Sequence record: X05582.1
Source of the DNA: a phage
DNA: 220 nucleotides
Direction: 5' to 3' (one strand)
Part shown: in pieces, positions 216 to 220 of the stretch
Layout of the letters: every line of letters starts with the position of its first letter
Numbering within the stretch: position 1 is the stretch's first letter
The notes under the pieces: generated by a model
Seen by the model: the letters and a program-made list of their open reading frames with translations, nothing else
What the model was told of the DNA's origin: nothing
Databases searched by the model: none
Position numbers and translations under genes: made by a program

Positions 216-220
216 CTTCA

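Follow-up and report, generated by a model that had tools for sequence, protein, structure and literature searches.

An engineered joint between the right end of phage Mu and truncated lacZ in X05582.1, very probably from a Mu dII protein-fusion transposon

Composition of the window

Sequence record X05582.1 was analysed over its whole stretch of 220 nt, hereafter called the window. By megablast, the window divides into two clean halves, with positions 1-103 corresponding to lacZ on the minus strand and positions 104-220 to phage Mu. The Mu half is 100% identical to the final 117 bp of the 36,717-bp Mu genome (36601-36717; AF083977.1 and NC_000929.1), and the lacZ half is found with 100% identity in many phage, plasmid, and E. 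coli genome records. The following features were assigned:

1..103, minus strand: 5'-truncated lacZ ('lacZ), CDS nt 26-128, 100% identity, placed against the native lacZ of F128 (L007)
1..218, minus strand: single open frame, with 39 codons of Mu end and linker followed by LacZ
72..88, plus strand: M13 (-40) universal primer sequence GTTTTCCCAGTCACGAC, an exact string match inside lacZ, directed toward the Mu tip
103..108, no strand: man-made joint at a BamHI site (GGATCC; GGATCA in natural Mu)
104..220, plus strand: right (S) end of Mu (attR), identical to Mu 36601-36717 in a side-by-side comparison with the end of the Mu genome, non-coding tail
143..165, plus strand: predicted third MuA-type unit, R3 by position, scoring 18/23 in the consensus scan and inverted relative to R1 and R2
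171..193, minus strand: predicted second MuA unit, R2 by position, supported by 16/23 in the consensus scan and by direct repeat D1, in direct orientation and adjoining R1
193..215 (approximate bounds), minus strand: predicted MuA unit nearest the tip, R1 by position, supported by direct repeat D1
219..220, plus strand: terminal CA dinucleotide of Mu, where the similarity among four independent insertions stops

The lacZ portion extends from the second base of codon 9 (Met = 1) to codon 43; it has neither promoter nor Shine-Dalgarno sequence, and the ATG is missing along with the rest of the first 8 codons. Besides the complete -40 site, the first 12 bases of the M13 (-20) primer lie at 92-103, their remainder having been lost at the BamHI joint. 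Because the -20 site is cut by the joint, only the -40 primer would be suited to sequencing out of the element. The cassette start in the window, GGGGATCCCGTCGTTTTAC, coincides with the start of lacZ in pSV-beta-Gal (PMC2364642), and this boundary is that of the standard truncated lacZ for constructing fusions.

At the joint itself, the bases GATC (104-107) occur in Mu as well as in the lacZ cassette. Where natural Mu has ...CATGGGGATCACTTAGGG, the window has ...CATGGGGATCCCGTCGTTTTAC, and both natural Mu and a natural Mu-like prophage part from the window right after GATC. In the Mu genome, the mom coding sequence ends at 36602, so that the Mu part of the window, whose first base is the second of the mom stop codon, represents the non-coding tail of the phage in all of its 117 bp.

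In line with this composite structure, megablast against 50,697 phage records (INPHARED), 72,556 plasmids (PLSDB), and 5,426 complete E. coli genomes found no record spanning at least 80% of the window; the Mu and lacZ halves matched only separately. Furthermore, the 23-nt chimeric joint ACATGGGGATCCCGTCGTTTTAC gave 0 exact matches each in GTDB species genomes, IMG/VR, and JGI metagenomes. No protein carrying both halves of the 72-residue hybrid peptide was found in the protein search. A 64-nt query for the lacZ-side linker did not detect it in PLSDB, where all matches begin at native lacZ, but this result is uninformative, as few cloning vectors are included in PLSDB. The absence of the joint from the public collections that were searched is expected for a laboratory construct.

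The structure of the joint also bears on the possibility that a natural Mu prophage had transposed into lacZ, which would then be the disrupted target. Mu and lacZ are indeed adjacent in the window and both are 100% wild type. However, lacZ adjoins Mu position 36601, which is internal and lies 117 bp away from the tip, instead of a TG/CA terminus; the ligation at GATC creates GGATCC where Mu has GGATCA; lacZ is broken at the standard point of the truncated cassette; and the joint occurs in 0 of the 5,426 E. coli genomes. The internal position of the joint refutes such an insertion, and we accord it next to no probability. Judging from its sequence, the window is not wild Mu in a host gene and is evidently an engineered Mu end/'lacZ joint.

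Predicted MuA binding units

Within the Mu half, a direct repeat family of 22 nt (D1) relates positions 190-211 to 168-189 (77% identity, spacing 22), and an inverted repeat (I1) relates 155-166 to 193-204 (92% complementary). The right end of Mu carries three MuA sites, R1-R3 (PMC3145075), and the predicted layout of two direct units and one inverted unit in the window matches these sites.

A pattern scan additionally reported terminator-like hairpins at 159-178 and 185-201, which correspond to MuA repeats pairing with each other. Rfam gave no match in the window even with permissive thresholds, and the promoter scan found no sigma-70-like promoter in it. With both searches empty and the hairpins arising merely from the MuA repeats, we rejected the possibility that the window encodes an RNA or a regulatory element.

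Base 220 is the terminal nucleotide of Mu

The window ends with CTTCA (216-220; GCTTCA for 215-220). Since the last base of a record could be a matter of convention, independent insertions of Mu or Mu-like phages were compared with the window, namely those of the E. coli W lineage (L002/L005/L006), ST18 (L003), S17-1 (L004), and a Logan assembly in which the insertion lies inside pyrI (L009). Four independent insertions, three of them at different chromosomal positions of complete E. coli genomes and one in L009, match the window up to the TG: they are identical as far as TGAAGCGG... (the complement of ...CCGCTTCA-220) and mutually unrelated immediately beyond. This confirmed base 220 as the true biological terminus of Mu rather than a convention of the record. 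The original prediction, which had identified the 3' part of the window as the right (S) end of Mu with 220 as its last nucleotide, is thus borne out by the 100% identity to 36601-36717 and by the four insertions that break at this base.

The host pentamers beside the right tip of Mu in these insertions are GCGGC (L002 146-150), CCGGC (L003 146-150), CCCGC (L004 146-150), and ACCGC (L009 634-638). Mu prefers targets with the consensus N-Y-S-R-N, and its left end reads TGTATTGATTCAC.... All four outside pentamers fit this consensus, for which the chance is 1/8 for a single pentamer, and all four end in GC. Mu has conserved CA ends and attacks its target with a 5-bp stagger, resulting in a 5-bp target duplication (PMC3562280). 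Such a duplication, which the original prediction had also put forward, is exemplified by GCGGC at both ends of the prophage in E. coli LY180 (L002, L008).

The last 50 bases of the window (171-220) are letter-for-letter the published Mu right-end adaptor, which is used with purified MuA transposase in vitro (PMC4005685). A text search for the 3' part of this adaptor also hit many nanopore rapid-kit papers, which suggests that the Mu tip may turn up as an adaptor in sequencing data unrelated to phage or transposon.

The coincidence of the window boundary with exactly the last base of Mu is unlikely to have arisen by chance (approximately 1 in a few hundred) and points to a deliberate choice.

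Two further observations concern the natural relatives. The related laboratory donor strains ST18 (L003) and S17-1 (L004) each match the window in three places. Their best-scoring Mu right ends lie at different junctions: that of ST18 is at a truncated gene for an MFS transporter, that of S17-1 at a truncated mhp-region hydrolase gene. Moreover, many natural relatives differ from Mu by two adjacent bases, at 141-142 of the window (Mu 36638-36639; L009 717-718). These relatives, SfMu and many E. coli prophages, are 98.3% identical, and the change replaces D by A in the peptide read through from the tip (...NETAVLITAF...). At 141-142 the bases of the window are those of Mu, which is consistent with its derivation from laboratory Mu.

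An open frame leads from the Mu tip into lacZ

On the minus strand, frame 3 is open through all 72 codons and is the frame of lacZ. It contains no stop and no in-frame ATG, GTG, or TTG, and therefore it cannot start by itself. At the tip, the complement of 219-220, TG, provides bases 2 and 3 of a junction codon. The other 5 of the 6 frames carry stops: in the Mu part, one of the remaining minus-strand frames is closed at 218-220 and 134-136 and the other at 181-183, 166-168, and 148-150, and stops also occur in each of the three frames of the plus strand. Among composition-matched shuffles of the 117 nt, only 6% were open in the lacZ frame. The Mu part being wild type, the construct exploits a frame that happens to be open in the natural end of Mu.

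Translation through this frame also has natural counterparts. When public protein collections were searched with the 72-residue peptide, they returned dozens of short predicted proteins (P0002-P0076) composed of a host N-terminus, L or V, and the Mu-encoded peptide ...SLHGD followed by HLGYG*. Their front pieces carry the domains PyrI, LysR HTH, RsmF_N, YcgL, and SBD_N. The host proteins cut short in this manner include PyrI, a LysR-type regulator, RsmF, YcgL, and a four-carbon acid sugar kinase, and the tail, encoded in frame at the right tip of a Mu or Mu-like prophage, comprises 44 residues ([L/V]...SLHGDHLGYG*). Short 'hypothetical proteins' with such a Mu tail are marks of natural Mu insertions and constitute annotation artefacts, not a protein family.

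The insertion in pyrI (L009, 401-772) reveals the corresponding DNA: the junction reads ...GCA CCG C|TG AAG CGG, with a junction codon made of one host base and the TG of Mu. The natural frame in L009 stops 18 nt past the GATC at which the window turns to lacZ, which shows that the natural stop has been replaced by lacZ at the engineered joint. The functional point of this end is the open fusion frame from the tip into lacZ, a point inside the window, whereas the original prediction had placed any interest outside of it.

The open frame also separates the window from other lacZ-bearing Mu derivatives. Operon-fusion elements of the Mu dI or MudJ type have stops in a spacer between the Mu tip and lacZ, and their lacZ brings a translation start of its own; the ends of in vitro mini-Mu stop after R2 (50 bp). 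An end of either kind with a lacZ reporter would have the same Mu tip, and the last 50 bp of the window are the in vitro MuA substrate. However, the lacZ of the window has no start codon and its frame is open from the tip, which speaks against an operon fusion, and the presence of 117 bp with a third, inverted unit instead of 50 bp speaks against a mini-Mu. The open, start-less frame and the length of 117 bp contradict both types of element, which we therefore consider very improbable as the source of the window.

Identity of the element and proposed mechanism of fusion

Taken together, the window is very probably the right (S) end of a Casadaban-type Mu dII lac protein-fusion transposon. In the original descriptions (Casadaban and Chou 1984, PNAS 81:535; Castilho et al. 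1984, J Bacteriol 158:488), the S end of Mu dII elements is reportedly 117 bp in length, and the Mu segment measured here is likewise 117 bp. Among the members of this family, MudII4042 carries lac('ZYA)931 (PMC2865507), and torA8::MudII1734 yields torA'-'lacZ (PMC3509656). Furthermore, MudK generates random lacZ translational fusions and requires the absence of stop codons upstream of the reporter (PMC3973593). Over the 220 bases, the family members Mu dII301, MudII1681 (a mini-Mu), MudII1734 (= MudK), MudII4042, and MudIIPR13 are indistinguishable. The remainder of such an element, comprising lacY, lacA, a drug marker, and the Mu left (c) end with or without the A and B genes, lies outside the window; the marker is Km in 1734 and 1681, Cm together with P15A in 4042, and Ap in 301. 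The Mu end/'lacZ joint is a well-known laboratory tool dating from the 1980s.

The window ends at base 220, containing neither further sequence nor the left end of Mu. The expectation that an insertion site lies just past 220, with the disrupted gene being recoverable, therefore found no support. The most probable reason for the stop at base 220 is that the sequence is a description of the element or of its end joint, not of a particular insertion; this is indicated by the stop exactly at the engineered tip and by the plus strand following the conventional orientation of the Mu map. The original prediction had mentioned a cloned end fragment as an alternative and thereby foresaw part of this explanation, with the element itself now added as the simplest reason for the stop at the tip.

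Alternatively, an actual Mu dII insertion mutant could have been sequenced outward from lacZ and the read trimmed at the Mu tip, with the target gene, as the original prediction had it, lying beyond 220. On the plus strand, the succession from lacZ through the joint to the Mu tip is the direction of such a read, and the M13 -40 site points the same way. The exact boundary would also be accounted for by a trim, being deliberate rather than random, and real insertions have host DNA and the 5-bp duplication at the Mu tip. However, the window contains zero host bases, and reads from mutants are deposited for the sake of their host part, not with the host part removed. Moreover, the plus strand is at the same time the conventional orientation of the Mu map (ascending to 36717), as expected of the description of an element. 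We thus regard a trimmed read as unlikely. If it were true, the target gene, possibly an interesting one, would not be identifiable from the window, and the element would still be a known tool.

For the Mu dII element proposed here, the established mechanism of Mu would lead to protein fusions as follows. MuA bound at R1-R3 and paired with the left end, which lies outside the window, would nick after A220, and the 3'-OH of A220 would act as the strand-transfer nucleophile, joining target DNA with a 5-bp stagger. If the insertion is in a gene that is both transcribed and translated, has the correct orientation, and leaves one host base ahead of the TG of Mu, ribosomes would read on into the element. 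The product would consist of the host N-terminus, one L, V, or M codon (NTG), a 39-residue Mu/linker peptide, and beta-galactosidase, and its LacZ activity would reflect transcription as well as translation of the target gene. Approximately 1/6 of random insertions within a gene would be expected to have the correct orientation and frame.

This reading has practical consequences. The window represents a laboratory construct and not a natural locus, and it is best treated as vector or tool sequence and filtered out. The M13 -40 site (72-88), or a primer placed in 171-220, reads out of the tip into the DNA struck by the element. In addition, the composition of the frame (one host base plus TG, 39 linker codons, LacZ) provides a rule by which an in-frame fusion can be predicted from a real junction sequence.

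Comparison with known systems

Wild-type Mu attR shares with positions 104-220 of the window identical bases, the layout of MuA repeats, the terminal CA, and the read-through frame. Unlike the window, it continues GGATCACTTAGGGTATGGCTGA, its frame stops after HLGYG, and mom follows on the other strand, whereas the window turns to lacZ at GATC.

The in vitro MuA substrates, that is, the 50-bp R1-R2 adaptors used in mini-Mu mutagenesis and tagmentation kits, equal positions 171-220. Compared with such an adaptor, the window has 67 more Mu bases, including the third unit, and a reporter gene.

Truncated lacZ cassettes of the pMC1403/pMC1871 lineage and of pSV-beta-Gal have the same 5' boundary as the window (GGGGATCCC-GTC-GTT-TTA-C), with BamHI in the same frame. 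While these plasmid cassettes are joined in vitro to a chosen gene, the cassette in the window stands behind a transposon end, so that fusions are made in vivo by transposition.

The closest agreement is with the Mu dII elements, in which, as in the window, the S end of Mu is placed directly on a 5'-truncated lacZ (a 'ZYA 931-type cassette) with the frame open from the tip. Their described use is the formation of X'-'lacZ hybrid proteins, and over the 220 bases no difference between these elements and the window was found.
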